From contig JBHLOY010000008.1 in assembly GCA_048939995.1 (NCBI GenBank), positions 106,835 through 170,834 of the forward strand: DNA of 64,000 nt, given 5' to 3'. Both the position numbers and the translations under genes were made by a program. Shown one piece after another: positions 1,147-41,883 of the stretch; position 1 is the first letter of the stretch; the number at the start of each line of letters is the position of its first letter. The notes below the pieces were generated by a model, which saw only the letters and a program-made list of their open reading frames with translations, searched no databases and was not told the DNA's origin. This stretch comes from Promethearchaeota archaeon. GTDB taxonomy: Archaea > Asgardarchaeota > Lokiarchaeia > Sigyniarchaeales > SOKP01.

Positions 1147-1695
1147 TTAAAATTCTAAAATTTTCCCCATTTCAAGTCTTACCTCATGACGATCAATATC
1201 ATTATTAGAATACGCAATTAAATCAAAACCAGTAAAAGTATATCCATAATTTAAGTAGAATTGAATAGCAGTATAATTTGAACTTTGGCACTCCAACACA
1301 ATCGCCCTACAATTCCACTCTACTGCGCGTTTTTCAGCAAACTTTAATAATTTTTCACCAAACCCTTTTCGTTGTGATTCTTCATTTATAGAAATATCCC
1401 ATATTCTGGCAGTATTATTCCAAGACTGTTTACCCACTACTATTAATCCAATTTCTTTTCCATTGTCATTAAATGCTATATAATATTCTGCCCCTTCTTT
1501 ATATTTTTGAAAGATATCCCCCTCAGAATACTTTGTAAATGTACTTGGAAATTGTGTTTTTTGTAAATCGATTGACCATCCACTATTCTTCTTTTTTTCT
1601 TTAACTGAAATATCGTAATAAAATTTCGAATAGTATTGGAATATATCTTTCTTATTGTTCGGAAAGTCTTTTTCGAAAATCTGTATTATTTTAAT
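1147..1695 (-). CDS. GNAT acetyltransferase (streptothricin acetyltransferase-like), probable ATT start
   Basis: Motifs QRKGFG and LECQSSNYTAIQFY. The frame stays open 86 codons upstream of the track's GTG (1437) with no ATG/GTG/TTG; ATT at 1695 lies 7 nt after GGGTGA. Confidence 0.75.
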   Translation of the reverse strand: MKIIQIFEKDFPNNKKDIFQYYSKFYYDISVKEKKKNSGWSIDLQKTQFPSTFTKYSEGDIFQKYKEGAEYYIAFNDNGKEIGLIVVGKQSWNNTARIWDISINEESQRKGFGEKLLKFAEKRAVEWNCRAIVLECQSSNYTAIQFYLNYGYTFTGFDLIAYSNNDIDRHEVRLEMGKILEF

Positions 1696-1702
1696 AAATT
1701 GA

Positions 1703-2563
1703 TCACCCAGATAATTTATTAGATTTTAAGATTCTTTCAAATTGATTTTTTATTTCGCTCCATGACGCCATTCGTTTAATTAACGGCTTATCATTCATAA
1801 TCACTCCTCGAGAAATACCGTACTTTTTAATTATTTCTTTGTTGTCTGTATTTATTAAATTTAAATTAATATTTGGATAGTTCTTTAGATTTCTTTTAAT
1901 ATCATCGACCATAAAACAGTTCCATGGACATTGACTATTCAGAAAAAGATTAAGGCCGCTAATCGAATTTAATTTCTGATATTTTATTAGAGAGGGAGCT
2001 GCTTTTGAGCCTAAATCTAAATAAAGAAGAACTCTCTCATCCTCACGATCGACTTCTTTAAATCCAAATTTTTGAAAAAATTGTGATGGCATGTACTTTA
2101 TTGTTGTTCCGAACCATTTCTCATTATCATACGCTAAAACGCTAATTCCTCCAACTTTTTTCGCCCGTTCAATCAATCTTTTTATTAATGCTTTCCCAAC
2201 TCCTTTATTCCAGAATGCTGGTAAAATCCAGATACAATTGATAAATAAGGAATCCTTACCCTCAAGGGGTTCTAATGCAAATTCAATTGGAATACTTTCA
2301 ATGAGTCCCATGGGTACATAACCTTTTATAGCAAGGTCTGAATGACGCATTTTACCAGCCCATTTGTAATAAATTATTTCATTTTTAGGCGTATCAAGAG
2401 CTAAAAGGATTTCTAAACCAAATCTCATCATTTTCTTTATCCATGATATTCTTTGCTCCATACAGTTTTTCATCACTTTCTTTAATCCCTTCCCTACACT
2501 TGGGTCCATACAAATAGCAGGGATGAATACTAATTCATCTTCAGAGACAATTTTTATTTCCAA
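1703..2563 (-). CDS. GNAT acetyltransferase with C-terminal thioredoxin-like (YoaP-like) domain
   Basis: FINCIWI...WNKGVGKAL acetyl-CoA motif; C-terminal SQCPW. Confidence 0.7.
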   Translation of the reverse strand: MEIKIVSEDELVFIPAICMDPSVGKGLKKVMKNCMEQRISWIKKMMRFGLEILLALDTPKNEIIYYKWAGKMRHSDLAIKGYVPMGLIESIPIEFALEPLEGKDSLFINCIWILPAFWNKGVGKALIKRLIERAKKVGGISVLAYDNEKWFGTTIKYMPSQFFQKFGFKEVDREDERVLLYLDLGSKAAPSLIKYQKLNSISGLNLFLNSQCPWNCFMVDDIKRNLKNYPNINLNLINTDNKEIIKKYGISRGVIMNDKPLIKRMASWSEIKNQFERILKSNKLSG

Positions 2564-2813
2564 GATTAATTACCTTGATAATTTGAATGTGATTAATTTT
2601 TTATATAATTTTTTTTCTAACAATTATTAATCATAAGTACGCTGAAAATATCTTAATATCGTATATTTATAAGTAATTTGTGCAAATTTTCATGTTTTAC
2701 CCTTAAGTTAGGATTTTTTTTTCACAATAAAGACATTTAAATATATTAGATGACTTTTTCAATTAAAAAAAGGTTATGAAATAGTAACGCACAACCTTTA
2801 AAACCAAAAAAAA

Positions 2814-3236
2814 TTGGAGAAGAGAATGTCTAAAGACGAGATAAAACAAATACGGCTTAAAAAGGCTGAAATGCTATTGAAATCACAGAATATGCCAAAA
2901 CAGATAATTAAAGTTCATTCAATTGAGGATTTTGATGCTTTATTAAAAGATTATCCTGAAAAAGTAATAATCATAGATTTCTGGGCCATTTGGTGTGGAC
3001 CTTGCATGATGTTTGCTCCTATATTTGAGAAATTACAAAAAGAACATGCAAATGAATTCATATTCGTAAAAGTAAATGTGGATGAAAACCCATCAATTGC
3101 ACAGAGATATAGGATAACTGGTATTCCAACCACCCTTTTTATACAAAATGAGAAACAAGTGCATAAGATAGCAGGAGCTGTAAATCAAGAATACATGGAA
3201 CGTGTTCTTGAAAAACTTAAATCATTTTCTAAATAG
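2814..3236 (+). CDS. trxA: Thioredoxin
   Basis: DFWAIWCGPC active site, KVNVDE, GIPT. Confidence 0.95.
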   Translation: MEKRMSKDEIKQIRLKKAEMLLKSQNMPKQIIKVHSIEDFDALLKDYPEKVIIIDFWAIWCGPCMMFAPIFEKLQKEHANEFIFVKVNVDENPSIAQRYRITGIPTTLFIQNEKQVHKIAGAVNQEYMERVLEKLKSFSK

Positions 3237-3281
3237 GTTTATTTTTTATTTTTTTTAATTTTATAATGAGGATAAAAAACC

Positions 3282-3722
3282 ATGGAAAGCATTATTGAGC
3301 AATTAGATGAAAAAGAAGTATTTCGAAGTGAAAAATTATTTAAATGTATTCTTGGATTAAATGAAATCCAAGCAAATGTATTTTCCTATATTCTGAAGCA
3401 TGAAAATGTGAGTACAATGGAATTGAAAGAAGTTTTGGATAAAGATAGAAGCTCAATTCAAAAGGCACTAGGAGAATTAATTAAGTTAAAAATTATTAGT
3501 AGAAATTCATTTTCATTGAAGGATTATTTCGAGGCTAAGGGAATCAGTAATGAAACTAATGATAAAAGGGGTTATATTTACTTGTATAGCGCAAAAGATA
3601 TAAATGAGATTAAAGTGGAATTTAAAGATTTATTAGATAAATGGTATCACTCTATGGTTAACTATATTAATGATCTAGATAGTTTATTTGATTGCTATGA
3701 AATAGATGGAAAACTTTGTTAA
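3282..3722 (+). CDS. TrmB-like winged-helix transcriptional regulator
   Basis: STMELKEVLDKDRSSIQKALGEL helix-turn-helix; RGYIYLY wing. Confidence 0.75.
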   Translation: MESIIEQLDEKEVFRSEKLFKCILGLNEIQANVFSYILKHENVSTMELKEVLDKDRSSIQKALGELIKLKIISRNSFSLKDYFEAKGISNETNDKRGYIYLYSAKDINEIKVEFKDLLDKWYHSMVNYINDLDSLFDCYEIDGKLC

Positions 3723-3778
3723 GTTGAAATAACAGAAATAAATTTTTGAATTTATATTTAAATAGAAAATAAGAGAAA

Positions 3779-4138
3779 TTATAAATATATACTTAATTTA
3801 TCGATATCATCCCTTAATTTAGAAATTCTTCTTAATTGCTCTTCTTCTTTATCTACTCCTTGCAAGTCTTCTTCTGAACTTGTTCGTTCATCTTCATATG
3901 CTTGTTCAACCATCATTCCATATCTAATTGCGTAAGCAACTAACTCAGGTATTAATGATATCATACTTTTAAAAGTAAAAATCCCACTTAAAGTACTTAA
4001 GATATTGATCATTTCTCCGAAAGGGTCAATCTCAATTTTAGGCTTCTTCATTAACTCCATTATCTTTCGAAATAGAATTTCATAAAATAGTTCAAGTTCT
4101 TCTCTATTGAGTTTAAATTCTTCCTCTTCTTCACCCAT
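3779..4138 (-). CDS. Hypothetical acidic helical protein
   Basis: 119-aa ORF with AGGTG RBS; no recognised motif. Confidence 0.6.
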   Translation of the reverse strand: MGEEEEEFKLNREELELFYEILFRKIMELMKKPKIEIDPFGEMINILSTLSGIFTFKSMISLIPELVAYAIRYGMMVEQAYEDERTSSEEDLQGVDKEEEQLRRISKLRDDIDKLSIYL

Positions 4139-4287
4139 TATTCACACCTTTAAATTAACAAAATTTTAGTTTCTAGTGAAAAATTAAATTAAAAAATGCA
4201 TTTATTTCTTTTACTTTATTTCACATAAATTTAAAAATTTTCTAAAAAAGCTCTAAATATATTACAATAATTTACTTAAAATAACAA

Positions 4288-5100
4288 ATGTCTTTTAATC
4301 CAGAAAAAACCGAATTGCGAATTGTAAGAAATCTACTCTATAATATCATAATTCTGCTTATCGTCTTTTTTTGGTTTTTTCGCTCTACCTATGATAACCT
4401 CTCTGGCTCATACATATTATCCTTTTTAATAATAAGTTCTATTACATTATCATTTATTTACAATATTAAAAAAGGATGTAAAAATTCTGTTAAAATCTTT
4501 CATCTAATTCTATTTTTGATACCAATCTCTTTTATTATTGAATTAATTTATGTTTATGAACCATTCACGTCAGCTATCTTTATTTCATTTTACAATTTGA
4601 TTGGAATCAGACATAATCATGATATTTTTTTGATTACTCTCTATTTTGCTTTAACAGTATTGAAAGTTCTCCCTATCAAATTATTTTATAATAGAATTAT
4701 TAAATTAAACGAGAAAAACAGATTTGATGATTTTTTTGAGTATTTTGCGAAGGACTTTAATAGAAATAAACTCATTCTTATAATTCTTCTGCTTCCTCTA
4801 GCGGCATTTATTGAAGAATTTATTTTTCGAAGTTTATTGTTAACTGTTTTAGTAAATTATCTCAACTGGAATAATATTATTGCAGTTCTATTTATATCTC
4901 TTGTCTTTGGATTTAGTCATTATTCTTCCTCGAAAAATTGGTTACATTTTCTTTCAACTACCTTTTCCTCTATAATATATTTTTTGGCTTTAATCCAATT
5001 AGGTTTATTATATCCTTGGTTATTACATTTAACCACAAATAGTCTTGCGTTATTATTTTTCTATCAAAATAACAAATTAAAAACTAAGGAGAATACTTAA
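4288..5100 (+). CDS. CPBP/Abi (CAAX) intramembrane metalloprotease
   Basis: EEFIFR, FGFSH and HLTTN motifs; multiple TM segments. Confidence 0.85.
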   Translation: MSFNPEKTELRIVRNLLYNIIILLIVFFWFFRSTYDNLSGSYILSFLIISSITLSFIYNIKKGCKNSVKIFHLILFLIPISFIIELIYVYEPFTSAIFISFYNLIGIRHNHDIFLITLYFALTVLKVLPIKLFYNRIIKLNEKNRFDDFFEYFAKDFNRNKLILIILLLPLAAFIEEFIFRSLLLTVLVNYLNWNNIIAVLFISLVFGFSHYSSSKNWLHFLSTTFSSIIYFLALIQLGLLYPWLLHLTTNSLALLFFYQNNKLKTKENT

Positions 5101-5107
5101 ATTATTT

Positions 5108-6892
5108 TTAATGATAAAGATAAAGAAATCTCTCCAAATAATAAAGAAAAATTTGAGTGTAATATCCTGGAAAATAAAAATCGCAACCATGTCCTCCTAA
5201 CGGCATCCATAAAATTGCACATTCATCATTTTCATGTGATAAATAAATATTCTGGATATTTGTTGCTATGCTGAAATAATTCAAAATATCATGAGTCCCT
5301 TGGAAAATTAGACAAGGGGGGCTATCATTATTAATTAAATTTTCTGGATTTTTGAATTCTTCTTTACCGTCTATTCCGAACCATTGCATTGCTCCATTCG
5401 CGGGATAATATGGTATCATTCCTTTTACTATAATACTTGGACTAAAAATATCGGTATAATTTCCGCTTGCTATTGCTAATGCGACAGCGCATGTAAGATG
5501 TCCTCCCGAAGACCCACCTGTTATAAACACAGAATCTAAACTAGCACCATACTCAAGGGCATGATTATCCAGATAATAAGTAAAATTCCCAATATGTTGC
5601 ATCATATCATCAATATTGAAATCTCCTTTTGTATACTTTGGAGTAATTGGATCTATTGGAGTTAAAAAGGTATCAAATAATCCATACTGAATATCAAATA
5701 CAATATATCCTTGTGCTGCTAAGTATTTATTAAATGGTATCATATCTGATCCCCCTTTATCTCCTAAAATCCAACCACCACCATGGATACGAATTATAGT
5801 CGAATTTTGTCCAGGAAGGTTCCTCCCATTATTTAATGGCATGTAAGCATCAAAATAAAGATTAACACCTTCATTACTATAAAAAAGGATGTTTTCTTTT
5901 ACGATACAGTCCTCGGCAGGGATTCCAAGGAAGTAGCTTGAAGTTGAAAAAGGCGTTTTTAGAAAAAAGTCATTTATATTCGTAGGAATTCTATTACGCC
6001 AATCATATCCAAAAGCAGTTGAAAAATTATTATGGGCGGAATAAGTTGTTACATGAGTTAAAAATAATGGTAGAAGCATAACAAATGCAACAACAAGACC
6101 CATAATTGTTTTTCGTTTGAATTTTTTGGGAGACCATTTATTTCTCTTTAATTTTATTAAAATAAGTGTATTTATTAGAAAGATTAATGAAAAAAATGCT
6201 CCAAATTGAGCAGAAAACATAGCAAAAATAGTGGTGACTATTTCAAATGACCCAAATATAGTGACAAAAGCACATAATATTCCAATATAGAAGGTAATAT
6301 TACTTAAAATAGTAAGAATTTTCTTTAAAATCCTCTTAGTCCGCATTTTTCTTTTAGATGGAAATCGTGTTTTATTCCTATTAGAGTTCCAAAGCTTCTC
6401 ATTTTTAATGTTTAGAATATCGAATAAGGCAATAAAAAAGTTAAATCCAAACAAACTGAAGTAACAAAAATAGACTAAGAAATAGCCAAATCCACTAAAT
6501 ATGCTTAGTGGGCGATAACTTGAATAAATAAGTAGATTACCACCCATTATCCCCAATACTGCGATGATCACAAAACCTAGATAGATATAACAGATCAGGT
6601 TTAGTTTTTTCCCTAATCTTAAGGTCTTATTTACTTTAATTGAGTTAATATATACTAATAATCCATTGAGAAATAGCGTAATAATAATTAAGATGCCTAA
6701 TAAATCCCAGAATACATTATATATTGGAAAGATCAAATAAAAAATTCCAGAAATAAGACAAATAGGATTTAAAATAATTGAAAAGAAACTAACTCTTTTA
6801 ATCGTAAAAAAAGCTACAAGATTTTCAACTAATATTCTTGTACTTTTTAATTTGAACTCTATTTGAATTAAAGATGGCTGTTCCATCTGCAA
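5108..6892 (-). CDS. Membrane-anchored alpha/beta hydrolase (HSL-family esterase/lipase)
   Basis: Multi-TM N-half; HGGGW oxyanion loop, GGSSGG nucleophile elbow, GTHD and GGHG. Confidence 0.85.
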   Translation of the reverse strand: MQMEQPSLIQIEFKLKSTRILVENLVAFFTIKRVSFFSIILNPICLISGIFYLIFPIYNVFWDLLGILIIITLFLNGLLVYINSIKVNKTLRLGKKLNLICYIYLGFVIIAVLGIMGGNLLIYSSYRPLSIFSGFGYFLVYFCYFSLFGFNFFIALFDILNIKNEKLWNSNRNKTRFPSKRKMRTKRILKKILTILSNITFYIGILCAFVTIFGSFEIVTTIFAMFSAQFGAFFSLIFLINTLILIKLKRNKWSPKKFKRKTIMGLVVAFVMLLPLFLTHVTTYSAHNNFSTAFGYDWRNRIPTNINDFFLKTPFSTSSYFLGIPAEDCIVKENILFYSNEGVNLYFDAYMPLNNGRNLPGQNSTIIRIHGGGWILGDKGGSDMIPFNKYLAAQGYIVFDIQYGLFDTFLTPIDPITPKYTKGDFNIDDMMQHIGNFTYYLDNHALEYGASLDSVFITGGSSGGHLTCAVALAIASGNYTDIFSPSIIVKGMIPYYPANGAMQWFGIDGKEEFKNPENLINNDSPPCLIFQGTHDILNYFSIATNIQNIYLSHENDECAILWMPLGGHGCDFYFPGYYTQIFLYYLERFLYLYH

Positions 6893-7243
6893 TACCCTGT
6901 TATTTTATATTAGACAAAAGTCTAATTATAATATTATAAATGCTCCTAATTTTTATTGGTCATGTTAAGAGCGATTTATAGTAACTTGACAATTTTATAA
7001 TTAATGAAATTACAAGAATTTAATTTTACCTAATTAGTAAAAATTTATAAAAAAATTTTAAGAAATAGTTAGCTTATCTTATTTTTTGAAGCTTATTGAT
7101 CTTTATTGATCTTAGGTTAAATATTTTAGTTGTTATTCATTTACTTACAATTAGTAGTTAAGGGTAAAACCCTAAAAAATAGATGATTTTCAATTTAAAT
7201 TATAAGAATTAAAGTAATAAATACCGTCTAAATATGTTTAACT

Positions 7244-8089
7244 ATGATTATTTGGATTCTTGAAAGTGACTCAGGTTCAAAATTGCTGTATAAATCTTTT
7301 TTAAAGACTGATGCGGATGAAGATATAGTATCTGGTTTTTTAACAGCATTCCACCATTTTTCGATGGTAGAATTTCATCAATCTTTGGAATCAATAGAAA
7401 TGGGAGGGTTGAAGTGGATTTATATATTAGAACCAAAGTACAATTTGCTTTTTGTGGCAGCCGGTACAAAAAATGTTAGGACTGAAATTTTAATGGGCAG
7501 ATTGAATGTGATAAAAGAAGCTTTTATAAAACAGTTTAAACCAACATGGAAAAAAAGAGGTGAAAACTGGGATGGAAGCATTAGTGTATTCAAAAGTTTC
7601 TTGAATACCATTGAAGATTATTATAAACAATGGGAAGAAGTAGAAACTTTGACTCAAGTCGCTGATTTCTTTGATATTCTGGGAGTATTTCAACAAATTT
7701 TTATTATACTTAGAAATATAATTGAAAATAGAATGTATACAAAATCCAAGAACTTTATATTAAATAAAGTAGAGGAAAGATATAAAAATCTAATCGAAAA
7801 AGGAGAATTTAAAGATCAACAACACTTAACAAATGTTACCTTCTCTAAAGAAGCATGGTTCAACATTATTGATGAAAAATTAATTAAGTGTGAAAAGGAA
7901 TTAGTTATCAAATTTCTGAAACTTTTACTTTCAGATATTGTCTATACCTTGCAGGATGTTAAAGGAAGTCATCTATGTTTGAAATACTTCAGTGAAGATA
8001 ACATCTATGCCTATATTTTTAACAACATGAAATTGTTGAAAGATTTAAATTTAGATTCTTTTATGTTAGAATTGTTTTTATTATTATAG
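7244..8089 (+). CDS. Longin-like domain protein
   Basis: IWILESDSGSKLLYK...IVSGFLTAFHHFS...SIEMGGLKWIY...LLFV pattern. Confidence 0.65.
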   Translation: MIIWILESDSGSKLLYKSFLKTDADEDIVSGFLTAFHHFSMVEFHQSLESIEMGGLKWIYILEPKYNLLFVAAGTKNVRTEILMGRLNVIKEAFIKQFKPTWKKRGENWDGSISVFKSFLNTIEDYYKQWEEVETLTQVADFFDILGVFQQIFIILRNIIENRMYTKSKNFILNKVEERYKNLIEKGEFKDQQHLTNVTFSKEAWFNIIDEKLIKCEKELVIKFLKLLLSDIVYTLQDVKGSHLCLKYFSEDNIYAYIFNNMKLLKDLNLDSFMLELFLLL

Positions 8090-8153
8090 AATTTAAATCT
8101 ATAATTATTAATAATATTTTTATTAATTAACAGCATTATCTTAAAATATTGAT

Positions 8154-9245
8154 ATGAAGAGATTCAAATCCATAGACTTTTTAAGAGGGATACACGTTTT
8201 TTTGATGATTGTTCTACACTACAGTGAATGGTGGCTAGTAGTAGATGCACAATCGCTAAAAATTTGGCTATTTCATATTTTTGAACCTATAGGTGCAACA
8301 GGGTTCTTATTTATTTCAGGAGTGAGTGCATCTTTATCATATAAGAGTAGTAAAAAAAAACTTACAAGCACAAGCTTAGATTGGTATAAAATAAAAAATA
8401 TTTATTTATTAAGAGCTTTAATCCTTTTATTTATTGCATTAATTTATAATTTAATATTATCATTTAGATTTGGTGATTTGTCAGATATTTGGAGTTGGAA
8501 TGTACTACAAACCATTGCTGTTTCTCTCATTATTGTATGGCCGCTTTTAAAACTCTCTAAAACTGTAAGATTAATCGTTGGAATTTCTATAATAATCATT
8601 AATCAAGCCTTATTAATTTTTTTAAGCCCCTTTGAGGATCAGTTAAATTTCTATGGCATATTGTTTCATTTATTATATAATCCCTTACAACAATTTACTA
8701 TCTTGTCTTTTTTCCCTTTTTTTCTCTTTGGAACTGTTATTGGAGATATTATATTTGGAATCAGCGCAATGGAGGATGAAAATGAAAGAAGAAGTGCTAT
8801 AAAAGACACATTTCTTAAAAGTGTCTTAATATTGGGGGGTGGATTAATAGTAATTGGAGTATTATATCAATTTCCCTATTTTTTAGAGCGTAATACGTTC
8901 CCATCTTTTATCTATTCGATAGGAGTGATTTTAGTGATATTTTCAATTTTAATCTCGATCGAAGAATTTAATCTTATTAAGGCTAGGAAAAATTACAATT
9001 TTTTCTTCTTTTATTCATATTATTCATTTACTGTTTATTTAGGGCACAATGTATTCTATTTTCTATTCTTTAACCAGTTAAATGCTATTAGTTTTTGGAT
9101 TCCTATTATTCTTACAATGAGTTTTATAACCATTTTAATTAGAATAATTTATAAAAAATTAGGACCAAAAGCTTCTTTAAAAACAGGAATATCAACATTA
9201 AGCTATCTATTGGTAACTAAATTTAATAGGAAAGAAGCACATTAG
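8154..9245 (+). CDS. HGSNAT/DUF1624-like membrane acyltransferase
   Basis: RFKSIDFLRG...MIVLH, FLFISGVS, WNVLQTI; multi-TM. Confidence 0.75.
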   Translation: MKRFKSIDFLRGIHVFLMIVLHYSEWWLVVDAQSLKIWLFHIFEPIGATGFLFISGVSASLSYKSSKKKLTSTSLDWYKIKNIYLLRALILLFIALIYNLILSFRFGDLSDIWSWNVLQTIAVSLIIVWPLLKLSKTVRLIVGISIIIINQALLIFLSPFEDQLNFYGILFHLLYNPLQQFTILSFFPFFLFGTVIGDIIFGISAMEDENERRSAIKDTFLKSVLILGGGLIVIGVLYQFPYFLERNTFPSFIYSIGVILVIFSILISIEEFNLIKARKNYNFFFFYSYYSFTVYLGHNVFYFLFFNQLNAISFWIPIILTMSFITILIRIIYKKLGPKASLKTGISTLSYLLVTKFNRKEAH

Positions 9246-9326
9246 TTTAGATTAGAATTATTAATTTTATAAGATTGCAGAATTGATATAAGAATTTAAT
9301 TAAAAAAAAAAGTAGATTTCAAAAAT

Positions 9327-10241
9327 TTATGATTTTGGTTTTATTGCTTTCACTTTTATACTAGTACTATCAATATCTAATTGATCCAATTCTTTAACTT
9401 TTTCAATTTGATCTCCTAATGCTTTTTTGATGTTATCGTCATTGAGCAGAAATTCGTTTGTAGAAAAATTACTTTGTTCAATAATTTCAATTTCTTGAAA
9501 CCCGGCTTTTCCAATAGCCTCCAAGTATTTATTTTTCATAATTGCTCCACCAATACAACTTACATAAGCTTGTGCATTCTTTCTAATAACATCAGGAAGT
9601 TCTTTAAGTAGAACAATGTCAGATACCATCACCCTCCCTCCTGGTTTTAAGACGCGATAAGCATCTCGAAATACTGCTTCTTTATCTGGTGAAAGATTAA
9701 TAACACAATTTGATATTATAAGATCAATGCTATTATCTGCAACAGGTAGATGTTCAATTTCACCAAGCCTAAACTCAACATTATCGTAATTACCCTTTTT
9801 TGCATTTTCTCGCGCCTTATCAATCATAGCAGGAGTCATATCTACACCAATAACTTTTCCAGTTTTCCCAACCTTTTTTGCTGCAATAAAGCAATCTAAC
9901 CCACCTCCTGAACCGAGATCTAAAACGATTTCACCTTCTTTTATGGAGGCATGAGCTGTAGGATTACCACACCCTAAAGCTAAATTGGCACCGGATGGAA
10001 TATTGTTCAAATCTTCTTCTGTATATCCTAATTGTTCGCTATATTTCTTTAAGAATTCATCCCTTTTATCAGCAGGAATCCTAATTGCTGTACCGCAACT
10101 ACAAGAATTTTCGATTTTTGTTTTAGCTTCGGGAGATGGTCCGCAACAACTCGAACTCAATTTGCGGTTTGCAGCAATCGAATACTTCTCTCTTACAATT
10201 TTCCTTATATTTTCTATTTCTAAAGGTTTATCTTCTTCCAT
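9327..10241 (-). CDS. arsM: Arsenite S-adenosylmethionine methyltransferase
   Basis: [28 protein letters not shown] and SCIGGA Cys motifs. Confidence 0.9.
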
Positions 10242-16550: not shown

Positions 16551-16925
16551 ATGAGAATGTCAACATATACTTTCATGATATCTACTGAGCCGTATAAGTT
16601 CGAAGCAGTTGATACTTTGCTTAATTTATGTAGAGCAGTGTTACAAAAAGGACATAATATTAAGGGAATATTTTTTTACGGAAGCGGTGTCTATAATATT
16701 AAAAAAGATATTGAAACTGGTATTACTGTTCGTAATTTACCAGCACGTTTGGAAGAATTTATTAAGGAGAATCAGATTCCAGTCGCTGGGTGTACAACAT
16801 GGATTGGACTTTGTGGATTAAATGAGCATTGTTTTATTGATGGTGCAAAAGAAGAAGGATTGGGTGAATTGTCCAATTGGACAGCAGAATCAGATAAACT
16901 AATAATGTTTGGAACAGGGGGATAA
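16551..16925 (+). CDS. dsrE: DsrE/TusD sulfurtransferase
   Basis: EPY, IFFYGSGVY, active-site-position Cys in VAGCTTW, GLGEL. Confidence 0.85.
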   Translation: MRMSTYTFMISTEPYKFEAVDTLLNLCRAVLQKGHNIKGIFFYGSGVYNIKKDIETGITVRNLPARLEEFIKENQIPVAGCTTWIGLCGLNEHCFIDGAKEEGLGELSNWTAESDKLIMFGTGG

Positions 16926-16930
16926 GGAAA

Positions 16931-17299
16931 ATGATCAAATCGGTTGTAATAGTAAGTGACCAATCTCCAGTCGGAAAAAACTCTGCCATTGAAGCTTTAA
17001 GGCTAGGGTCAGGATTTAGGGGATTAGGGGAGGAGATTGACTGCCAGGTGGTACTTATGGGTGATGCGGTTTACTTATTGAGTAAACACGCAGATCCCTC
17101 TAAAATTGGAGTTGATTCTTTTGATGAACCAATGGAAATGGCGGAATTGTCTGATTTAGAAATATCAGTACTTGACAGCGCTATAAGTGATGCTGGATTA
17201 ACAAAAGAAGATCTTGTGGAATTTGAGGGTTTAAAGATAATCGATCTCAAAACTCTTGCAGAAATAATCGAAAATGCCGATACTACATTTAGATTCTAA
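16931..17299 (+). CDS. dsrF: DsrF/TusC family protein
   Basis: SPVG..SAIEALR, LMGDAVY; directly follows dsrE. Confidence 0.8.
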   Translation: MIKSVVIVSDQSPVGKNSAIEALRLGSGFRGLGEEIDCQVVLMGDAVYLLSKHADPSKIGVDSFDEPMEMAELSDLEISVLDSAISDAGLTKEDLVEFEGLKIIDLKTLAEIIENADTTFRF

Positions 17300-33214: not shown

Positions 33215-33619
33215 TTATTGCCATACTGCTAGTATTACTCCAGCAACCAGTAGTGCTACTAAGTAAGCACCATATTCTATTAAAAATAATTTAACTCCCC
33301 TGTCATTAAAGATGTTCTGGTTTACTGCCACCATTGCTATAAATGCGATCCATATGAGTAAGCTGAGCAAAAGAGCTGATGGTATATCATTCATCCCAGT
33401 TAAATCCATTAGAATTTCAAGTATCAGTACCGAAACAAAACTAGTAAATATCATTATAATGGTTTCTCTGATTATCTTTGATTTTTCTACACCTTCTTTT
33501 CCTACTAATTTAAGCCATGTATTTCCAAAAATATTAGGGTAGTACCAGAAAAATATTATAAAGCAATATATTACTGCTACAACGATCACACCTAACCAAT
33601 TAATATCTATTGCCATCAT
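33215..33619 (-). CDS. DUF1761-like membrane protein
   Basis: INWLGVIV, WY.P..FG..W, LFLI..G.YLV. Confidence 0.7.
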   Translation of the reverse strand: MMAIDINWLGVIVVAVIYCFIIFFWYYPNIFGNTWLKLVGKEGVEKSKIIRETIIMIFTSFVSVLILEILMDLTGMNDIPSALLLSLLIWIAFIAMVAVNQNIFNDRGVKLFLIEYGAYLVALLVAGVILAVWQ

Positions 33620-33864
33620 TGCTCACTTTTTATATGTTTAAGAAAATATAATTCAAATTTATTTAGGATTATCACAAAACATTATTTATTTGTTTTTTGT
33701 ATAAAATATAAATCGCGAAGATATACCCTATTTTGATGTAAAAACAATTTCATTTAAAAATTATTATTCTGTTTTTCAAGATAAAACTTATAAAAACTTT
33801 GAGAAATCATTAAATAATAAAAAGGATATTCTAGATTCAAATTTTTTATAAAAGGAGTGATATT

Positions 33865-34041
33865 ATGAAAAAAGTAAAATTACCCGAGAAATGTGAACAT
33901 TGTAATGCCGAGTTAGTTTGCTGTGAGGATAGTACCTCCCATACTAAGGATTCTCGCATTATTGAAGCACGGAAATGTCCTGAATGCGAGAGAGTGTATT
34001 ATATGGGCTACACCGATTATAATACATGGATCTCCCGATAA
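33865..34041 (+). CDS. Small (58 aa) zinc-ribbon protein
   Basis: Below the track cut-off. MKKVKLPEKCEHCNAELVCC...RKCPECERVYY has two CxxC; AGGAGTGA RBS upstream. Confidence 0.75.
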   Translation: MKKVKLPEKCEHCNAELVCCEDSTSHTKDSRIIEARKCPECERVYYMGYTDYNTWISR

Positions 34042-34062
34042 AACTTCGAATGCTTTTAGTAA

Positions 34063-34413
34063 TTATAACCAAGATATAATTTTCGAATTGGCAACCAATA
34101 GATCAACAAGATTTGCATACTCGATTTTTGCAATTTTATCCAAAATGAAATTTGGATTAATTCCACGAGCTTTAAGATCGGGTTGAAGAATATAAAAAGA
34201 AATAGGTAAATTAATAAGATCTAATAAATGTTTACTCATTTTAGACTTTTTGGTAAGTCCGATAACCGCGTCATGCATAAATACGAATGTGATATTTACT
34301 CCTAATTCTTTTTGTTCTTTTATGATATTTATCATTTTCTTTAATGGTCTGTAATTGTTTAAACTATAGCCAAAAAGATAAATAATGTTTTTAGACTTTT
34401 CCAATTTCGCCAC
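34063..34413 (-). CDS. dsrH: DsrH/TusB family protein (second copy)
   Basis: FMHDAV, DLKARGI, ends ISWL; paralog of 17314-17655. Confidence 0.85.
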   Translation of the reverse strand: MAKLEKSKNIIYLFGYSLNNYRPLKKMINIIKEQKELGVNITFVFMHDAVIGLTKKSKMSKHLLDLINLPISFYILQPDLKARGINPNFILDKIAKIEYANLVDLLVANSKIISWL

Positions 34414-34419
34414 CTCCTC

Positions 34420-34785
34420 CTAATATTTAAAACAAAAATCATTATCTAACAATAATTTAGAAATCGTCTTATAATCTATAATTTTTAAATGTTCATAAGG
34501 AATTAAGTCATTTTTATCAAGATCTAATGCTATAAGATCTTCAAGTGCAACAAGAATATGAAGTTCCGATAATTCGATTAACCTAATCATATCATCAAGC
34601 GAATCCATATTCAAATCCGAAGGGTTTACATTTTTATTAAGAAATAAAATCGCATCTCCTAAAAATAGCACTTGGCAAGTCTCAATATCTCCCATACTTA
34701 AAATTCCAGCAGCTAGTCTTATTGACTCAACCGCAGAATTTTTTCCAAAGGGAGAATCTTCACAAATTATCAAAATAGAAGTAAT
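34420..34785 (-). CDS. dsrF: DsrF/TusC family protein (second copy), probable ATT start
   Basis: SPFGKNSAVESIRL, CQVLFLGDA; alignment to 16931-17299 extends to ATT 34785, 6 nt after GGAGGTGA. Confidence 0.8.
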   Translation of the reverse strand: MTSILIICEDSPFGKNSAVESIRLAAGILSMGDIETCQVLFLGDAILFLNKNVNPSDLNMDSLDDMIRLIELSELHILVALEDLIALDLDKNDLIPYEHLKIIDYKTISKLLLDNDFCFKY

Positions 34786-34791
34786 GTATCC

Positions 34792-35160
34792 TCACCTCCC
34801 TGGTCCAAAAAATACAACTCGATCAGATTTACCGATTAGTTCTGAAAGTCCACCTAATCCATCCAAACATGCTCTTTTGATAAAATCTGATTCCTTTAAT
34901 CCAGTTATACTTATCCAGGTACTACAAGCAGCTATATCGGCATTACTTTTCTCAATAAATTTTTGAAGTCTTTTTGGTAAATCTCGAATCGAACTAAATA
35001 GTTTTCTATCTTTCTTAATGTTATATACTCCACTACCAAGGAAGAAAATGCCTGCTACTTGATGCCCTTTTTTAATAATAGCTTCTCCTAGATTAATTGC
35101 AGTATCTATTGCTTGATATTTATATGGTTCAGCGGTAATAACAAAAGAAAATTTTAGCAT
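34792..35160 (-). CDS. dsrE: DsrE/TusD sulfurtransferase (second copy)
   Basis: EPYKY, IFFLGSGVY, IAACSTW, GLSEL. Confidence 0.85.
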   Translation of the reverse strand: MLKFSFVITAEPYKYQAIDTAINLGEAIIKKGHQVAGIFFLGSGVYNIKKDRKLFSSIRDLPKRLQKFIEKSNADIAACSTWISITGLKESDFIKRACLDGLGGLSELIGKSDRVVFFGPGR

Positions 35161-35204
35161 ATTATTAAAAATACTTTAATCAATATTTTTAATTTATCAT
35201 TTTC

Positions 35205-36152
35205 TTATCCAGAGTAGTGTTCTTTTTCTGGATGAATCATATTGGTGAATTGAAAATCAAAAATATCTTTAATGCTGAGTTGCTTATTTACATAACCTAG
35301 ATTATGAAGAATCTGTATAAATCTCATTGTAGACCCTATATACTCTTCAGAAAGTGCAACGCAATATTTTGGTGAGATTTTAAGTACAGACAAAACATAT
35401 TTTGTATTAATAAATCCAAATGATTTTGAAATTATTTTAGCTGCTTTCTTTTTCTTATTTCTCAACATATATGAAGCTTTCTTGTGCTGTTCTAAAAAGG
35501 TTTTTCCTATATTATGATGATCTTTAATTAAGTTTTCATGAAAGAATATCCCATAGCTTGGATTATAAGACCATAATTCAAATGGGGGGATTATAATATG
35601 AGCGTTTAGTATAGTTGAAGCAAAAACACTTAACGAAGGAGTTCCAACACCTGCTTCTAACAAATTCCTTTTCATATCAACAGCAATGAATTCTGCCTGT
35701 TCATAATTAACTATTGTTATATCATTCTGTAAATCATGTTGTTTAAGATAATATCTAATTATTACATCATGAATAGAACCTTTACTTGGAACACCGACAG
35801 CTTTTCCTTTGAATTGAGAGAGTACCATATTCATATCACCATTTGATTCTTCCATTTTTTTGTATCTCATTTTAGCAATCATTATTGTGCCTTCTACATG
35901 ACCTCCAGCAACGCATTTAATAGGAACTCCAGAATCGATTCCAATAATAGCAGGAGGGAGCCCCATATATCCAATATCTAACCTACCTTCTCTAAAAGCT
36001 TTAACCATTGATGGTCCAGTTCCAAATAAAAACCAATCTATATCGCTTTTAATGTGTTTCTGAAAATCTTTTCTTTCCTTTAAAATGAAAGCTGTATGAT
36101 AAGCAGTGGATAAATAACCAATATTAACCTTATTTTTTTTGATATAAATCAC
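35205..36152 (-). CDS. NitT/TauT/SsuA/Thi5-fold substrate-binding-like protein lacking a signal peptide
   Basis: IGYL, GPSMV.AF..GRLDIGYMGLPPAI, GVPSKGSIHD; no N-terminal hydrophobic segment. Confidence 0.8.
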   Translation of the reverse strand: MIYIKKNKVNIGYLSTAYHTAFILKERKDFQKHIKSDIDWFLFGTGPSMVKAFREGRLDIGYMGLPPAIIGIDSGVPIKCVAGGHVEGTIMIAKMRYKKMEESNGDMNMVLSQFKGKAVGVPSKGSIHDVIIRYYLKQHDLQNDITIVNYEQAEFIAVDMKRNLLEAGVGTPSLSVFASTILNAHIIIPPFELWSYNPSYGIFFHENLIKDHHNIGKTFLEQHKKASYMLRNKKKKAAKIISKSFGFINTKYVLSVLKISPKYCVALSEEYIGSTMRFIQILHNLGYVNKQLSIKDIFDFQFTNMIHPEKEHYSG

Positions 36153-36269
36153 TATTCAATTTTATTAAAAATTAGAAAATTATGAACTATTATTTAAAAT
36201 TATAAAGGAAATAATTAATTCTTAAAAGTTATTTTTTAAATATAAGTGAATGATATTAAAAAAGATTAT

Positions 36270-36557
36270 ATGATCCAAATTAGAGTTTGTTTTTTCTCAG
36301 TAATAAGCGATTTTACTAATAAGGATGAAATCACATTATCTACTGATGAAAAATCTACTATTAAAGATGTCATAGATAAAATAACTCTAAATTTTGGAAG
36401 AAAGTTCGGAGAACTTGTATTAAAAACTCCGAATGAGATCAATGATTATATAATCGTTGCAAAGAATGGAAAAGATGTCCGTTCCTTAAATAATTTAAAA
36501 ACATTTTTACAGAATGGTGATGAAATCTCATTTTTACCTGCAATTGCGGGTGGATAG
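36270..36557 (+). CDS. MoaD/ThiS/SAMP ubiquitin-like sulfur carrier
   Basis: Beta-grasp pattern NGKDV..L....LQNGDEISFLPAIAGG ending in GG; start 36270 (ATG) or 36246 (GTG). Confidence 0.9.
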   Translation: MIQIRVCFFSVISDFTNKDEITLSTDEKSTIKDVIDKITLNFGRKFGELVLKTPNEINDYIIVAKNGKDVRSLNNLKTFLQNGDEISFLPAIAGG

Positions 36558-36580
36558 AAACAAGGAACGAGGAGAGTTTA

Positions 36581-36847
36581 TTAAATTCTTTTAAGTCTAA
36601 GCATCCATTCCTTAGGTTTTGAATTAATTGATTTTCCTTTTAAAAGTATTGCTAATTTTTGGCGTTTACAGCTATCAGGTATATTTTTAAGAGCGGGTTC
36701 AAAATCTAATATTACTTCCAAAATTTCATCCTTATTAAGCTTCTCAAGCTCTACTTTTGTATATACGAAAGTCATCGGACAAACTTTTCCTCTTATATCC
36801 AAAGAATGAACCTTCGTATCTTTTACTTCTTTACTTTTTACCGGCAG
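36581..36847 (-). CDS. tusA: TusA/SirA sulfur carrier (third copy), start uncertain
   Basis: LDIRGKVCPMT, LEVILD. TTG 36802 truncates the first strand; the frame is open to CTG 36847 / ATT 36850 after GGAGTGA. Confidence 0.8.
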   Translation of the reverse strand: MPVKSKEVKDTKVHSLDIRGKVCPMTFVYTKVELEKLNKDEILEVILDFEPALKNIPDSCKRQKLAILLKGKSINSKPKEWMLRLKRI

Positions 36848-37644
36848 AATTCTTCACTCCAATAATCTACAATTTCTTCAAATTTTTTTGGACTTTCACC
36901 ACAAGATTTACAATTTTCATTTCGCTGAACTTCAATAAAGCTAAAATTATTTCTAAGAATATCAATAAACAGAATCTTATTTGTTATCAAATCTCCAATG
37001 TTTAATAGGGCTTTTATTGCTTCATTAGCTTCTATGCAACCAAAAATTCCGGGTGCTAATCCAATAACACCAGCTACAGAGCAGGTCATATTTGGGTCCA
37101 TCCCATCAACATTATCAAAAATACATTTATAACATGTAGTTTTCTTTTCAGGTACAACTGTCATTATTTGACCATGAAATCTTAAAACTCCTGCTATTGT
37201 GAAAGGAATTTTTAAATGTACACAGGTATCATTAATTAACATCTTTGTTGGGAAATTATCTGAACCTTCTATAACAAAATCAGAATCCTTTAAAATTTTT
37301 CTTGAGTTTTTAGGGGTAATTCGCTCAGTAATAGTTTCTATTTTGCAATCTGGATTAATAGAATTTAACTTTTTAATAGCACTCTCTGTTTTATACTTAT
37401 TTATATCTTCAGTATAATAAAGTATTTGGCGATGCAAATTAGAAATTTCCACAACATCATAATCAATTAATTGTAAATTTCCTACTCCTGCAGCCGTTAA
37501 GTAGTAAGCTGCTGAGGATCCTAAAGCACCTAAACCAATTAATGACACTTTAGAATTTAATAACTTTTTTTGTCCGATACTCCCTATTTCACTTAAAATT
37601 ATTTGACGAGAATATCTTTCAATTTGATCTTTAGTTAATTCCAT
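36838..37644 (-). CDS. ThiF/MoeB/UbaA E1-like adenylyltransferase
   Basis: RYSRQI, GLGALG, SNLHRQ, Zn sites CYKC and CKSC, TCSVAGV. Confidence 0.92.
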   Translation of the reverse strand: MELTKDQIERYSRQIILSEIGSIGQKKLLNSKVSLIGLGALGSSAAYYLTAAGVGNLQLIDYDVVEISNLHRQILYYTEDINKYKTESAIKKLNSINPDCKIETITERITPKNSRKILKDSDFVIEGSDNFPTKMLINDTCVHLKIPFTIAGVLRFHGQIMTVVPEKKTTCYKCIFDNVDGMDPNMTCSVAGVIGLAPGIFGCIEANEAIKALLNIGDLITNKILFIDILRNNFSFIEVQRNENCKSCGESPKKFEEIVDYWSEEFCR

Positions 37645-37821
37645 CTTTAAATCTATTTCAATATTATAATTTAAAAAATATTTTGATTATAAAAAAAAAC
37701 ATATATTATCTTGAAGAAGAAAGCTCATTTCAAAAACTATAAAATTTTCTAACTTTTAATTAATTAAACGAAAAAAGATTAACGCATCGAAGATATTAGT
37801 ATATTTTCTTAAAGGAAAAAA

Positions 37822-39045
37822 ATGAAAAGGAGTAAATATTTTGAACTTTTTGGGGATAAAAACTTTCTATTCCTTTGGATTGGAACGCTTGGGTTCGGTT
37901 TAGGCGGTGCTATATTTTCAATCAGCCTTAACTGGTGGGTTTTGATTGAGACTAATTCAGAAGTACAGCTTGGCATTGTAAATACCTTAATTTTCTTGCC
38001 AATGTTAATACTTTGTTTCTTTTCAGGATTATTGACGGATATGTTCAATCGTTTAAACTTAATGGTATTTTCGTTGATGCTCAGGGGAATTATCATACTA
38101 ATCTTTCCAATACTCCAAATCCTTCGCATTATTGAACTATGGCATATTTATATTCTTTCATTTCTTCAAGGCATATCATTCCCCTTTTTTCTTAATTCAA
38201 TAAATGCGATTATGCCAGAAATAATTAAGAGAGAGAATCTTTATCCGGCAAATGCTTTAATAGATTCAGCTATGTGGTTCTCAAATGTAGTAGGATACTT
38301 ATCAGGAGGATTTTTAATTAATACGTTAGGATATATAAGTCTATTTACAATTTCAGCATACACCTTAATTATCGGAAGTTTGATGTTTTTCCCAATAAAA
38401 TATACATATAGAAACAAGATAGAAAACATTTCTCTTCGAAGAATTCTCTCAGACATTAAAAAGGGTTTAGTAATAATGAAAAACGATTCAGTTTTGCTTA
38501 TGTTAACAATAACCTGGACAATAATTATGATGTTGTTCTCTAATGGTCCAATATCAATAGGATTGCCAGTTTTTTCTGAAAGGATTTTGAATGCCGGTTC
38601 TGAAGGGTATGGTATATTGGTTACAGCAGTTTCAGCCAGTTCATTGATAGGAAGTCTTATGATTGGACATTGGGGTTCTAAAATTAAGAAGGGAAGGCTT
38701 ACTCTTATTGGGTATATTTGGGGTGCCATAGGGATTCTAATTTTTACCTTTACTACAAACATTGTTTTTTCGGCTTCAATTTTGTTTTTTTGGAGTTTTT
38801 ATTTTCCTTTAATCAATATCCCATATTGGACTGCGATGCAAGAAAGAATACCACATGAAGAATTAGGAAAAATCACTGGTGTCTCCTTCACTTTAAATTC
38901 TGTTGTTGTTCCAATATCAACCATGATGACTGGATATGTTATGGAATTTATTTCAATCACCCTACCATTTATTCTCTTTTCTACTTCATTTATCCTATGT
39001 TTCTTCATAATATATCTTCATAAAAAAAGTAGAAAACTTGTTTGA
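37822..39045 (+). CDS. MFS transporter (DHA3/EntS-like)
   Basis: GLLTDMFNR motif A; about 12 TM segments. Confidence 0.88.
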   Translation: MKRSKYFELFGDKNFLFLWIGTLGFGLGGAIFSISLNWWVLIETNSEVQLGIVNTLIFLPMLILCFFSGLLTDMFNRLNLMVFSLMLRGIIILIFPILQILRIIELWHIYILSFLQGISFPFFLNSINAIMPEIIKRENLYPANALIDSAMWFSNVVGYLSGGFLINTLGYISLFTISAYTLIIGSLMFFPIKYTYRNKIENISLRRILSDIKKGLVIMKNDSVLLMLTITWTIIMMLFSNGPISIGLPVFSERILNAGSEGYGILVTAVSASSLIGSLMIGHWGSKIKKGRLTLIGYIWGAIGILIFTFTTNIVFSASILFFWSFYFPLINIPYWTAMQERIPHEELGKITGVSFTLNSVVVPISTMMTGYVMEFISITLPFILFSTSFILCFFIIYLHKKSRKLV

Positions 39046-39124
39046 TTCACAAATTTTATTTAATAAAGTGTTATTTTAATAAAATCTGTTTCTTTAATTT
39101 ATTTAGAGCAAAAGATAGTGATCA

Positions 39125-40039
39125 TTGATGAGTAAAACTAACTTTTCTGAACATTTATTTCAATATCGTTTAATAGAAAAGAGAAAGTTGGTATTATCCT
39201 TACTTATTACATCAACAGTTATGATTTTAGAAATTTTTGGAGGTATCATTACAAATAGTATTGCATTATTAAGTGATGCGGGTCATATGTTTACCCATTC
39301 CTTTGCAATTGGTATAAGTTTATTAGCTATCATCATAGCAAGAAAACCTCCTTGTCACCATAAAACATTTGGGCTCTATCGAGCAGAAGTGTTAGCTGCA
39401 TTCATTAATGGTCTTTTTCTTATTCCTATAGTAGGGATCATGGTTTATGAAGCAATTCTTAGATTTATAAACCCCCAAGAAGTATTTGGATTTTATATGT
39501 TAATAATAGCTTTAATAGGTTTATCAGTTAATATTACAAGTGTTCTCATATTACGTGGTAGCCAAAGGAATAATCTGAATGTAAAAAGTGTATTTTATCA
39601 TATGATTGCTGATGCAGCATCCTCTATAGGAATAGTAATTGCATCAATTATCATATCCTATACCGGATTCAACTTTTTGGATCCGCTAGTAAGCTTGGGG
39701 ATCTCTGTTATAATTTTATATTGGGCTTGGAGTGTTTTACGGGAATCAACAAGAATTTTATTAGAAATGGCTCCAAAAGGAATGAATATTGATATTATTA
39801 GAGAAGAACTTAAGGAAAATTTTCAAGAGGTTATTGATCTTTATAATGCTCATTTATGGACTATTACTCCAGATATGTTAGTTTTTTCCGCATATCTAAA
39901 AGTAGATGATAATATATTAAATAGTAATCAAGGAGATTTAGTTTCTAAGATTAACAATTATTTAAATGAAAAGTACAATATTATTGAATCGACTTTACAA
40001 CTAATATCTGTTAATAATCCCGAATATTGTAACATTTAG
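39125..40039 (+). CDS. czcD: CDF family Zn/Co/Cd efflux transporter
   Basis: SIALLSDAGHM, TFGLYRAE, HMIADAASS, HLW. Confidence 0.9.
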   Translation: MMSKTNFSEHLFQYRLIEKRKLVLSLLITSTVMILEIFGGIITNSIALLSDAGHMFTHSFAIGISLLAIIIARKPPCHHKTFGLYRAEVLAAFINGLFLIPIVGIMVYEAILRFINPQEVFGFYMLIIALIGLSVNITSVLILRGSQRNNLNVKSVFYHMIADAASSIGIVIASIIISYTGFNFLDPLVSLGISVIILYWAWSVLRESTRILLEMAPKGMNIDIIREELKENFQEVIDLYNAHLWTITPDMLVFSAYLKVDDNILNSNQGDLVSKINNYLNEKYNIIESTLQLISVNNPEYCNI

Positions 40040-40701
40040 AAAGATGTAATAATAGTTATAACTCCAACTAAAATAAAAATTAATACTGAGATCAATTTTA
40101 AATAAAATTTTGGTACCTTTTTAGCGATTGTCCCACCAATCAATATTCCTATCCAAGCTACTGTTATTAAAGCAAGAAATGAACCGATCCATACCTCTAC
40201 AAGAGGGTTTGTGGAAGCAAACGAAATTGTGGCAATTTGGGTTTTATCTCCTAACTCCATTAGAGAAATGAACCCAAACCCCGCTAAATAAGGATTTTTC
40301 CTTAATTTAGCAAGTTTTGAGTTTCCTTTACCTTCTAAATTCTCTTTTCTTTCGTTGCTTTCACTTTCAATAATTTCATGGTTCTTTTGCTTCCTATTTA
40401 AATAAAGCGATTTGAGTGAACGAGTCTCCAGAAGTCCAATTATTATAAATACAATCCCTGATACTATAGATATGATAATGTAAGGTAATAATTCTGCAAT
40501 AATCGCTCCAAAAAACACTCCAACAGTAACTATTAATGCAAATCCAAAAGTGACTCCTATACCAACTTTATAGAATTTCTCATATTCTAAAGCAAGGTTA
40601 AAGACAATCAATTGAGTTTTGTCCCCTAGTTCACTAAGGAATAGAAATCCATATGTTATTAGAATTACCACAAAATCCATGATTATATAAATTAATTCCA
40701 T
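40036..40701 (-). CDS. TMEM165/GDT1 (UPF0016) Ca/Mn transporter
   Basis: Two ELGDKTQ motifs. Confidence 0.92.
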   Translation of the reverse strand: MELIYIIMDFVVILITYGFLFLSELGDKTQLIVFNLALEYEKFYKVGIGVTFGFALIVTVGVFFGAIIAELLPYIIISIVSGIVFIIIGLLETRSLKSLYLNRKQKNHEIIESESNERKENLEGKGNSKLAKLRKNPYLAGFGFISLMELGDKTQIATISFASTNPLVEVWIGSFLALITVAWIGILIGGTIAKKVPKFYLKLISVLIFILVGVITIITSF

Positions 40702-40864
40702 TTGATATATCTTTTTAAATTCGATTCATTTGAATTTTAGCTCAATTAATCCATATATTGATTTATATTAACCATATTAGGATTCTGGTGCTTTTTATAA
40801 TCAAATTAATGTTTATAGATTATAATTTATATAGGGATTCAAATAAATTGAACTTCTAAAAAAT

Positions 40865-40892
40865 GAAAAAACCTTATATTAGATAAGCCTAA
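40865..40892 (+). promoter_or_regulatory. BRE/TATA followed by a DtxR/IdeR-like palindrome upstream of the iron permease
   Basis: GAAAAAACCTTATA then TTAGATAAGCCTAA (TTAG-N6-CTAA, 40879-40892). Confidence 0.5.
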
Positions 40893-40959
40893 AATTTATA
40901 TGATTTCTTTTTAGTATTTACATAGTAAACTTTTAACAATTATTAAGGTGACATGACTT

Positions 40960-41883
40960 ATTTCAATTGTAGATTTACCAATCCCCATATTTCTAGCATT
41001 TAGGGAAGGATTAGAAGCTGTTTTAGTTATAGTGATTATTATTTTATATCTTAAAAACTCAAAACAAACTCAATATTACAAATATGTTTTTCTTGGTGGT
41101 TTTTTAGCCATACTTGCGAGTATTTCATTTGCAATATTATTTAATATGCTTTTTGGAGAATTTACAGGTATTATAGAAGAATTATTCGAAGGAATTACGT
41201 TTATTATTTCAGGGATTTTCATAATAACGTTAATTTTATGGATGAGCAGAGAAGGACCCAAATTAAAGCAATCTCTTGAAATGAAAATTGAGGAATCTAT
41301 TGAGACCAGAAAACTCTTGTCAATCACAGCTCTTACATTTGTAATAATAGTGAGAGAAGGAATTGAGTTGGTACTTCTCCTAACTGGAGCTACCTCAGTA
41401 GGTTCCTTAGGACAAGGTGATGTAATAGTTGGATCATTAATAGGATTATCAACAGCGACTTTTATAGGGCTTTTAACCTTTTATGGTATCAAATCCATCA
41501 ATATTACTAAGTTTTTTAAAATAACAAACATCATTCTGATTTTATTTGCAGCCGGCTTAATAACCTATGGTATTCATGAACTAATAGAAGCTGGTTTTAT
41601 TAATCCAATAATCCCAGAAGTCTGGAATCTCAAATCAATATTACCCGAAAGTTTTCCAGATGGAAATCCTTTAACTCCAGAATTTCTCGAAATTATCGGC
41701 TCTTTAATGAAAACATTATTTGGATACAATGCTAATCCCTCTTTGTTGGAAGTCATTATCTATCCTGCTTTATTAATATCAATAGGCATAAGTTCTTTAC
41801 TTTTATGGAGAAAAAGCAGTAAAAATGTTTTAAGTAAACAAAATCGGGAAAATAAATTGAAATTGAAAGAAATTATAGCCTAA
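40960..41883 (+). CDS. FTR1/EfeU high-affinity iron permease, probable ATT start
   Basis: First REGLE motif lies upstream of the track's GTG 41032; second motif REGIE. In-frame TGA at 40954; ATT 40960 is 8 nt after AGGTGA. Confidence 0.88.
   Translation: MSIVDLPIPIFLAFREGLEAVLVIVIIILYLKNSKQTQYYKYVFLGGFLAILASISFAILFNMLFGEFTGIIEELFEGITFIISGIFIITLILWMSREGPKLKQSLEMKIEESIETRKLLSITALTFVIIVREGIELVLLLTGATSVGSLGQGDVIVGSLIGLSTATFIGLLTFYGIKSINITKFFKITNIILILFAAGLITYGIHELIEAGFINPIIPEVWNLKSILPESFPDGNPLTPEFLEIIGSLMKTLFGYNANPSLLEVIIYPALLISIGISSLLLWRKSSKNVLSKQNRENKLKLKEIIA

Follow-up and report, generated by a model that had tools for sequence, protein, structure and literature searches.

The window analysed here is a 64,000-nucleotide (nt) stretch (contig C38, positions 106835-170834) of a Promethearchaeota genome, a metagenome-assembled genome (MAG) of 38 contigs, 3.75 Mb and 30% GC (G000 below), whose best protein-database matches are Promethearchaeota and other Asgard MAGs. 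Three of its genes, encoding a GNAT acetyltransferase, a DsrF-like protein (dsrF2) and an FTR1-family iron permease, are very probably translated from ATT codons placed behind strong Shine-Dalgarno (SD) sequences. The relevant features (CDS, coding sequence; ORF, open reading frame; aa, amino acids) are:

1708-1703, minus strand: SD GGGTGA of the GNAT gene, the TGA of which also ends the upstream ORF 1703-2569
1147..1695, minus strand: GNAT acetyltransferase CDS, 182 aa, predicted ATT start at 1695-1693 (Pfam, homologue N-termini, orthologue)
34799-34792, minus strand: dsrF2 SD GGAGGTGA, which overlaps the stop of dsrE and is kept in the related genomes G019 and G010
34420..34785, minus strand: DsrF-like (dsrF2) CDS, 121 aa, predicted ATT start at 34785-34783 (Pfam DsrE/F, orthologues; alternative TTG at 34773)
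40946..40951, plus strand: SD AGGTGA of the FTR1 gene
40960..41883, plus strand: FTR1-family iron permease CDS, 307 aa, predicted ATT start (Pfam FTR1, orthologue starts)

A first-pass annotation of this DNA had drawn attention to these ATT codons, and all three lie exactly where it placed them, 6-8 nt behind a GGTGA-type SD and with an in-frame stop upstream. In the GNAT gene no canonical codon (ATG, GTG or TTG) could supply the N-terminus. Its SD and ATT are separated by TCAATTT (7 nt), an in-frame stop precedes the ATT by 10 codons, and the first canonical codon beyond it is GTG 1437, 86 codons on. The coordinates and the 86-residue extension thus match those originally proposed. A product begun at GTG 1437 would lack residues 1-86 of a protein whose PF00583 match runs from residue 43 to 152 (counted from the ATT), covering profile positions 6-116 of 116. 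Homologues of 180-186 aa from several Asgard lineages open with MKIIQIFxKDFPNNK, and the window gene with IKIIQIFEKDFPNNK; the correspondence of MKIIQIF with IKIIQIF therefore aligns the ATT with their Met-1. Orthologues of this gene were compared via the protein database, as no close one was present among the 40 relatives sampled. One of them, 86% identical and carried on a contig from a separate sample (SRR28427052), has AAGGTGA, 7 nt and ATT at the same codon. The gene-caller product for this orthologue is 104 aa against ~182 expected, bearing out the expectation that standard gene callers would truncate such proteins.

Two further observations concern this gene. The database entry for the window GNAT (P0004, 190 aa) is called from ATA 1719, eight codons before the SD-supported ATT, so the pipeline did use a non-canonical start, though probably not the right one. 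Elsewhere, a GNAT homologue in two independent assemblies (ERZ23498930, 1196-1809; SRR10836661, 767-1380) consists of two overlapping ORFs of 119 and 102 aa in shifted frames, and represents either a pseudogene with a frameshift or a site of recoding.

In dsrF2, six nucleotides (GGATAC) separate GGAGGTGA from the ATT, and the TGA within the SD serves both as the dsrE stop and as the in-frame stop of dsrF2 itself. The PF02635 DsrE/F match extends from residue 3 to 116 (profile positions 2-111). The orthologues in G019 and G010 retain GGGAGGTGA, 6 nt and ATT, while the spacer and the adjoining codons have diverged. The TTG found in G000 is replaced by TTA in both, leaving these two orthologues with no canonical codon that would preserve the domain. 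More distant copies and paralogues carry ATG within one codon of the ATT position. The proposal that ATT at 34785 restores a paralogue-like N-terminus behind a strong SD therefore stands, although the codon is not indispensable in the window genome itself.

The FTR1 gene is preceded by a 230-nt intergenic region, with an in-frame TGA two codons before the ATT at 40960 and an 8-nt spacer (CATGACTT) between it and AGGTGA. Its PF03239 match (E=1.6e-43) begins at residue 11, and the protein contains two REGxE motifs, REGLE at residues 15-19 and REGIE at 132-136. The first canonical codon downstream, GTG 41032, lies past REGLE, so this motif is encoded only if initiation occurs before it, just as had been argued for this gene. 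Start codons in 11 congeners (G000 included) are ATT in two (G000 and G019), ATC in one (G012), ATG in four, GTG in two and TTG in two, all lying no more than 5 codons apart and mostly behind GGTGA or GAGGT. Homologues place ATG, GTG or TTG at the ATT position of FTR1, ATG within one codon of that of dsrF2, and Met-1 opposite that of GNAT.

We considered a frameshift in FTR1 beginning with the out-of-frame ATG 40952 but rejected it: its spacer would be 1 nt, its frame closes after 16 codons, and the ATG is absent in G019. A separate observation comes from the FTR1 orthologue on contig C21 of G008, which has ACG at the position of the ATG of the G002 orthologue. ATC and ATA also occur close by, following GGTGG, and the start of this gene may be ACG or ATC.

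The window sites belong to a genome-wide pattern. We scanned every ORF of 100 codons or more, inspecting the zone between the upstream stop and the first ATG, GTG or TTG, scoring the SD 5-mers GGAGG, GAGGT, AGGTG and GGTGA with normalised spacers, and treating ATT, ATA, ATC and CTG as near-cognate. Ahead of trusted ATG starts these 5-mers show a spacer peak at 6 (range 4-9), within which the window spacers of 7, 6 and 8 nt (GNAT, dsrF2 and FTR1, respectively) fall. A strong SD precedes 43 of 1672 in-frame pre-start ATT codons, compared with 9 of 2342 out-of-frame ones, and ATC, ATA and CTG share this enrichment. In gene interiors, used as a control, every codon has an SD at a flat ~1.4%. The spacer profile of ATT peaks sharply at 6, with 22 cases against about 1-8 elsewhere. 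Counts of in-frame pre-start codons at spacer 6 are 33 for ATG, 24 for TTG, 23 for ATT, 13 for ATA, 7 for GTG, 7 for AAA and 5 for AAT. AAA, AAT and TTT match ATT in pre-start abundance, yet show no enrichment behind the SD.

Above background, the near-cognate excess amounts to ~59 genes with SD matches of at least 5 nt, or ~110 when 4-mers are counted. This corresponds to ~2-3% of genes (taking ~3,600 genes, a rough estimate) and to about a fifth of strong-SD-led starts. The excess depends on SD length. At runs of 3-4 nt it is zero while the canonical excess is large, and the near-cognate share of SD-led starts then climbs through 14%, 25% and 31% at 5, 6 and 7 nt. Second codons after near-cognate starts resemble those of real starts (Ser 21%, Lys 16%). 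The pattern extends to relatives: two congeners plus two sister-family genomes were sampled over 200-400 kb, and their strong-SD-led starts pooled to 17 near-cognate and 37 canonical, these being small numbers. The sample from the GC-rich relative G033 (54% GC) was too noisy to interpret either way. The first-pass annotation had called for a count of SD-led ATT, ATA and CTG starts across the genome, and this count gives the excess of ~59-110 genes.

The 20 near-cognate candidates furthest from a canonical codon were also checked for Pfam domains. For 11 of the 20, the domain match takes in residues encoded before the first canonical codon; 7 of these matches begin ~6 residues or less from the near-cognate codon. 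Supported proteins include ABCE1 (ATT, with Fer4_RLI at residues 1-35), FolE2 (ATC), an aldehyde:ferredoxin oxidoreductase (ATA), a flavodoxin (CTG) and a MinD/NifH-like ATPase (ATC), together with an ABC ATPase, a Ras-like GTPase, a pterin-4a-carbinolamine dehydratase, an HdrD-like protein and another GNAT. The domains contradicted the near-cognate start in none of the 20.

Within the window, two weaker candidates and one canonical comparator complete the picture:

34063..34404, minus strand: DsrH CDS, canonical comparator, TTG start at 34404, with GGAGGAGGTG and GCGAAA (6 nt) upstream
36581..36847, minus strand: TusA-like (tusA3) CDS, probable CTG start at 36847, behind GGAGTGA (36860-36854) and 6 nt
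43848..45062, minus strand: GlcF/HdrD-like CDS, probable ATA start at 45062, overlapping the upstream TAA

Both weaker cases have the arrangement originally described for them, and their orthologues add support. The tusA3 codon is CTG in G000 and G019 and TTG in G010, with an identical SD, and the downstream TTG is missing in G019. The ATA of the GlcF-like gene is conserved in G019, where neither TTG nor any other canonical codon occurs before the first Cys motif (CxxCxxC). As judged from these comparisons, CTG 36847 and ATA 45062 are probably start codons. The dsrH comparator was misread at first, as GGTGA, 6 nt and GTG: the GTG at 34413 belongs to the SD, the start is TTG 34404, and orthologues use TTG or ATG. 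The window carries two paralogous dsrE/F/H-type sulfur-relay sets, at 16898-17299 (plus strand) and 34063-35175 (minus strand). The dsrF of the paralogous set starts with ATG, and the set at 34063-35175 adjoins tusA, a ThiF/MoeB-like gene (36838-37686) and a GlcD/GlcF-like pair (43848-46603). An Rfam search of the window found no RNA family.

The reading we favour, with a probability of roughly 0.85 on the sequence evidence, is that near-cognate codons (AUU in the window; AUA, AUC and CUG elsewhere) act as genuine translation starts behind strong SDs. The pattern looks like tolerance compensated by a strong SD rather than a general relaxation of start selection. The suggestion that this lineage has relaxed start-codon selection is therefore sustained only in part: near-cognate starts appear to be real and genome-wide, but their excess is confined to SDs of at least 5 nt, which speaks against relaxation as such. 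Mechanistically, a long SD duplex between GGAGGUGA and the 16S 3' end GGAUCACCUCC would hold the small subunit so that a codon 5-8 nt on sits in the P site. There, initiator Met-tRNA would pair with two of the three codon bases, and the strong SD would compensate for weak codon-anticodon pairing. Under AT-biased mutation, changes of ATG to ATT or ATA could then be tolerated wherever the SD is strong. The 16S gene was not found in the organism's own assembly, and the anti-SD was therefore read in congeners, whose 16S 3' end is complementary to the SD. The data show where the N-termini lie, that the SD matters, that the arrangement is conserved among relatives and that the excess is genome-wide; decoding of near-cognate codons by Met-tRNAi, its efficiency, and any regulation through aIF1 are parts of this scheme that we infer.

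Several results weigh against it. Initiation of dsrF2 in G000 could occur at TTG 34773, 4 codons past the ATT, so that the extension there is 4 residues and the ATT is not strictly required. The domain evidence is uninformative for 9 of the 20 candidates checked, and in G000 the SD of the GlcF-like ATA (GAGGAATT) is poorly placed. Finally, ARAGORN did not find the initiator tRNA, leaving room for a special one. On G000 this program reported 9 tRNAs without introns and 21 with introns allowed, and no tRNA with a CAU anticodon. Its tRNA genes probably either carry many introns or are absent from the assembly.

One alternative, which we regard as improbable, accepts the N-termini but attributes them to another mechanism, either start-codon-independent re-initiation by translational coupling or a dedicated AUH-reading initiator tRNA. 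Both GNAT and dsrF2 directly follow an upstream gene whose TGA stop lies in the SD, and 31% of near-cognate SD-led starts have an upstream ORF on the same strand no more than 25 nt away. The latter figure is not above the 41% of canonical SD-led starts, however, so coupling is not required; FTR1 has its long intergenic region, and 43 of the 76 near-cognate candidates have no upstream ORF within 100 nt. The codons used are, moreover, exactly one-mismatch neighbours of AUG, whereas the equally common AAA, AAT and TTT are unenriched.

It is very unlikely that the near-cognate codons are decayed ATGs, leaving either pseudogenes or genes translated only from the next ATG, GTG or TTG to give N-terminally truncated products. 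The low GC content of this AT-biased genome, the nearby TTG of dsrF2 and the frequent exchange of start codons among FTR1 orthologues, indicative of fast turnover, are all in keeping with such decay. Truncation, however, would cost half of the GNAT fold, the first FTR1 REGLE and the Fe-S domains of the ABCE1 and HdrD-like proteins. The reading frames are intact as well as conserved. Across species, the ATT persists together with its SD, unlike the TTG alternative, and an in-frame excess specific to spacer 6 would not be expected from decay. A change of ATG to ATT by sequencing or assembly error can be dismissed for practical purposes even in a MAG of 38 contigs, as ATT recurs in independently assembled genomes from other species and in a contig obtained from a different sample, ~60-110 sites follow the same pattern, and nine runs from at least four studies contain most of a 7.5-kb stretch (not site-specific evidence). 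No RNA run was among the sequencing runs listed for it. Metagenome contigs gave no match in an exact-pattern scan with the start region of FTR1 in which any base was allowed at the third position of the ATT.

Near-cognate initiation behind strong SDs may also involve the fidelity factor aIF1 (SUI1). Neither a Pfam search nor tblastn with the G019 protein located aIF1 in the G000 assembly (98% complete); the regions that flank the gene in G019 are missing too, so its absence probably reflects an assembly gap. In the genus, 15 of 15 primary orthologues have no ATG, GTG or TTG anywhere from the upstream stop to the zinc knuckle, and the ATT at codon 4 is conserved (for example G019 contig C22, 7308-10523, ORF 1417-1767). 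The start is ATA in genus g5, and a canonical start is lacking in three other Asgard families also, while 24 of 30 further Asgard genomes have one. That ATT is the only aIF1 start in the genus suggests that discrimination against this codon persists and that it is not accepted freely. An inspection of aIF1 for discrimination-site changes had been proposed. In the relatives, loop 1 reads KRKWGR, compared with KRRFGK in the M. jannaschii structure, and retains its basic character. The comparison gave no loss of function that could be interpreted, and the W is common to relatives with an ATG-started aIF1.

We tentatively suggest, as a speculative possibility arising from our analysis, that this Asgard order has an aIF1-centred feedback like that of bacterial infC, in which the level of AUU- or AUA-started aIF1 would set initiation of the ~60-110 strong-SD near-cognate genes (including ABCE1, sulfur-relay and iron-uptake genes). 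A near-cognate start on a fidelity-factor gene would, at the least, provide a testable model of a trade-off between SD anchoring and aIF1 proofreading.

The implications for annotation are more immediate. If near-cognate codons behind strong SDs are starts, gene finders restricted to ATG, GTG and TTG will shorten these proteins, and a few percent of the proteins in much-studied Asgard genomes would be cut short or overlooked. The lost N-termini include catalytic or metal-binding parts, distorting domain inventories and structure predictions. More generally, third-position mismatches appear to be accepted under a strong SD in a lineage whose factors are eukaryote-like, contrary to the description of archaeal initiation as limited to AUG, GUG and UUG.

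In bacteria, SD-led AUU, AUA, AUC and CUG starts are known from E. coli infC and pcnB and are among the alternative initiators of NCBI table 11. The cases described here resemble infC and pcnB in having a near-cognate codon one mismatch from AUG, at normal SD spacing, as the sole possible start of an intact, conserved protein: GNAT and FTR1 both have a homologous N-terminus, an in-frame stop upstream and no canonical codon that would preserve the domain. They differ in scale, a handful of genes per bacterial genome compared with ~2-3% of genes here, and in their host, an archaeon with the eukaryote-type factors aIF1, aIF1A and aIF2. The gene for IF3, infC, is autoregulated through its AUU start. 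In the same vein, eIF1 is described as autoregulated through poor AUG context (Ivanov 2010, as cited in PMC6237735). The likeness to infC and eIF1 is that the fidelity-factor gene itself has a suboptimal start, as does aIF1 in all 15 congeners; most other Asgard families sampled have canonical starts (24/30).

For archaea, reviews list AUG, GUG and UUG alone as starts (PMC7531240), and a paper on P. abyssi aIF1 gives the same three codons; S. solfataricus aIF1 is reported there to discriminate against non-canonical ones (PMC6237735). Our literature search, of incomplete coverage, found no report of AUU, AUA or AUC initiation in Asgard or other archaea. The closest archaeal counterpart in our comparison is the P. 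abyssi aEF1A leader GGAGGUGAUUUAAAUG (PMC6237735), which shares with the Promethearchaeota genes the SD sequence, a spacer of ~6 nt and an anti-SD at the 16S 3' end. What sets the genes described here apart is the codon predicted to occupy the P site, which is AUU, AUA, AUC or CUG.

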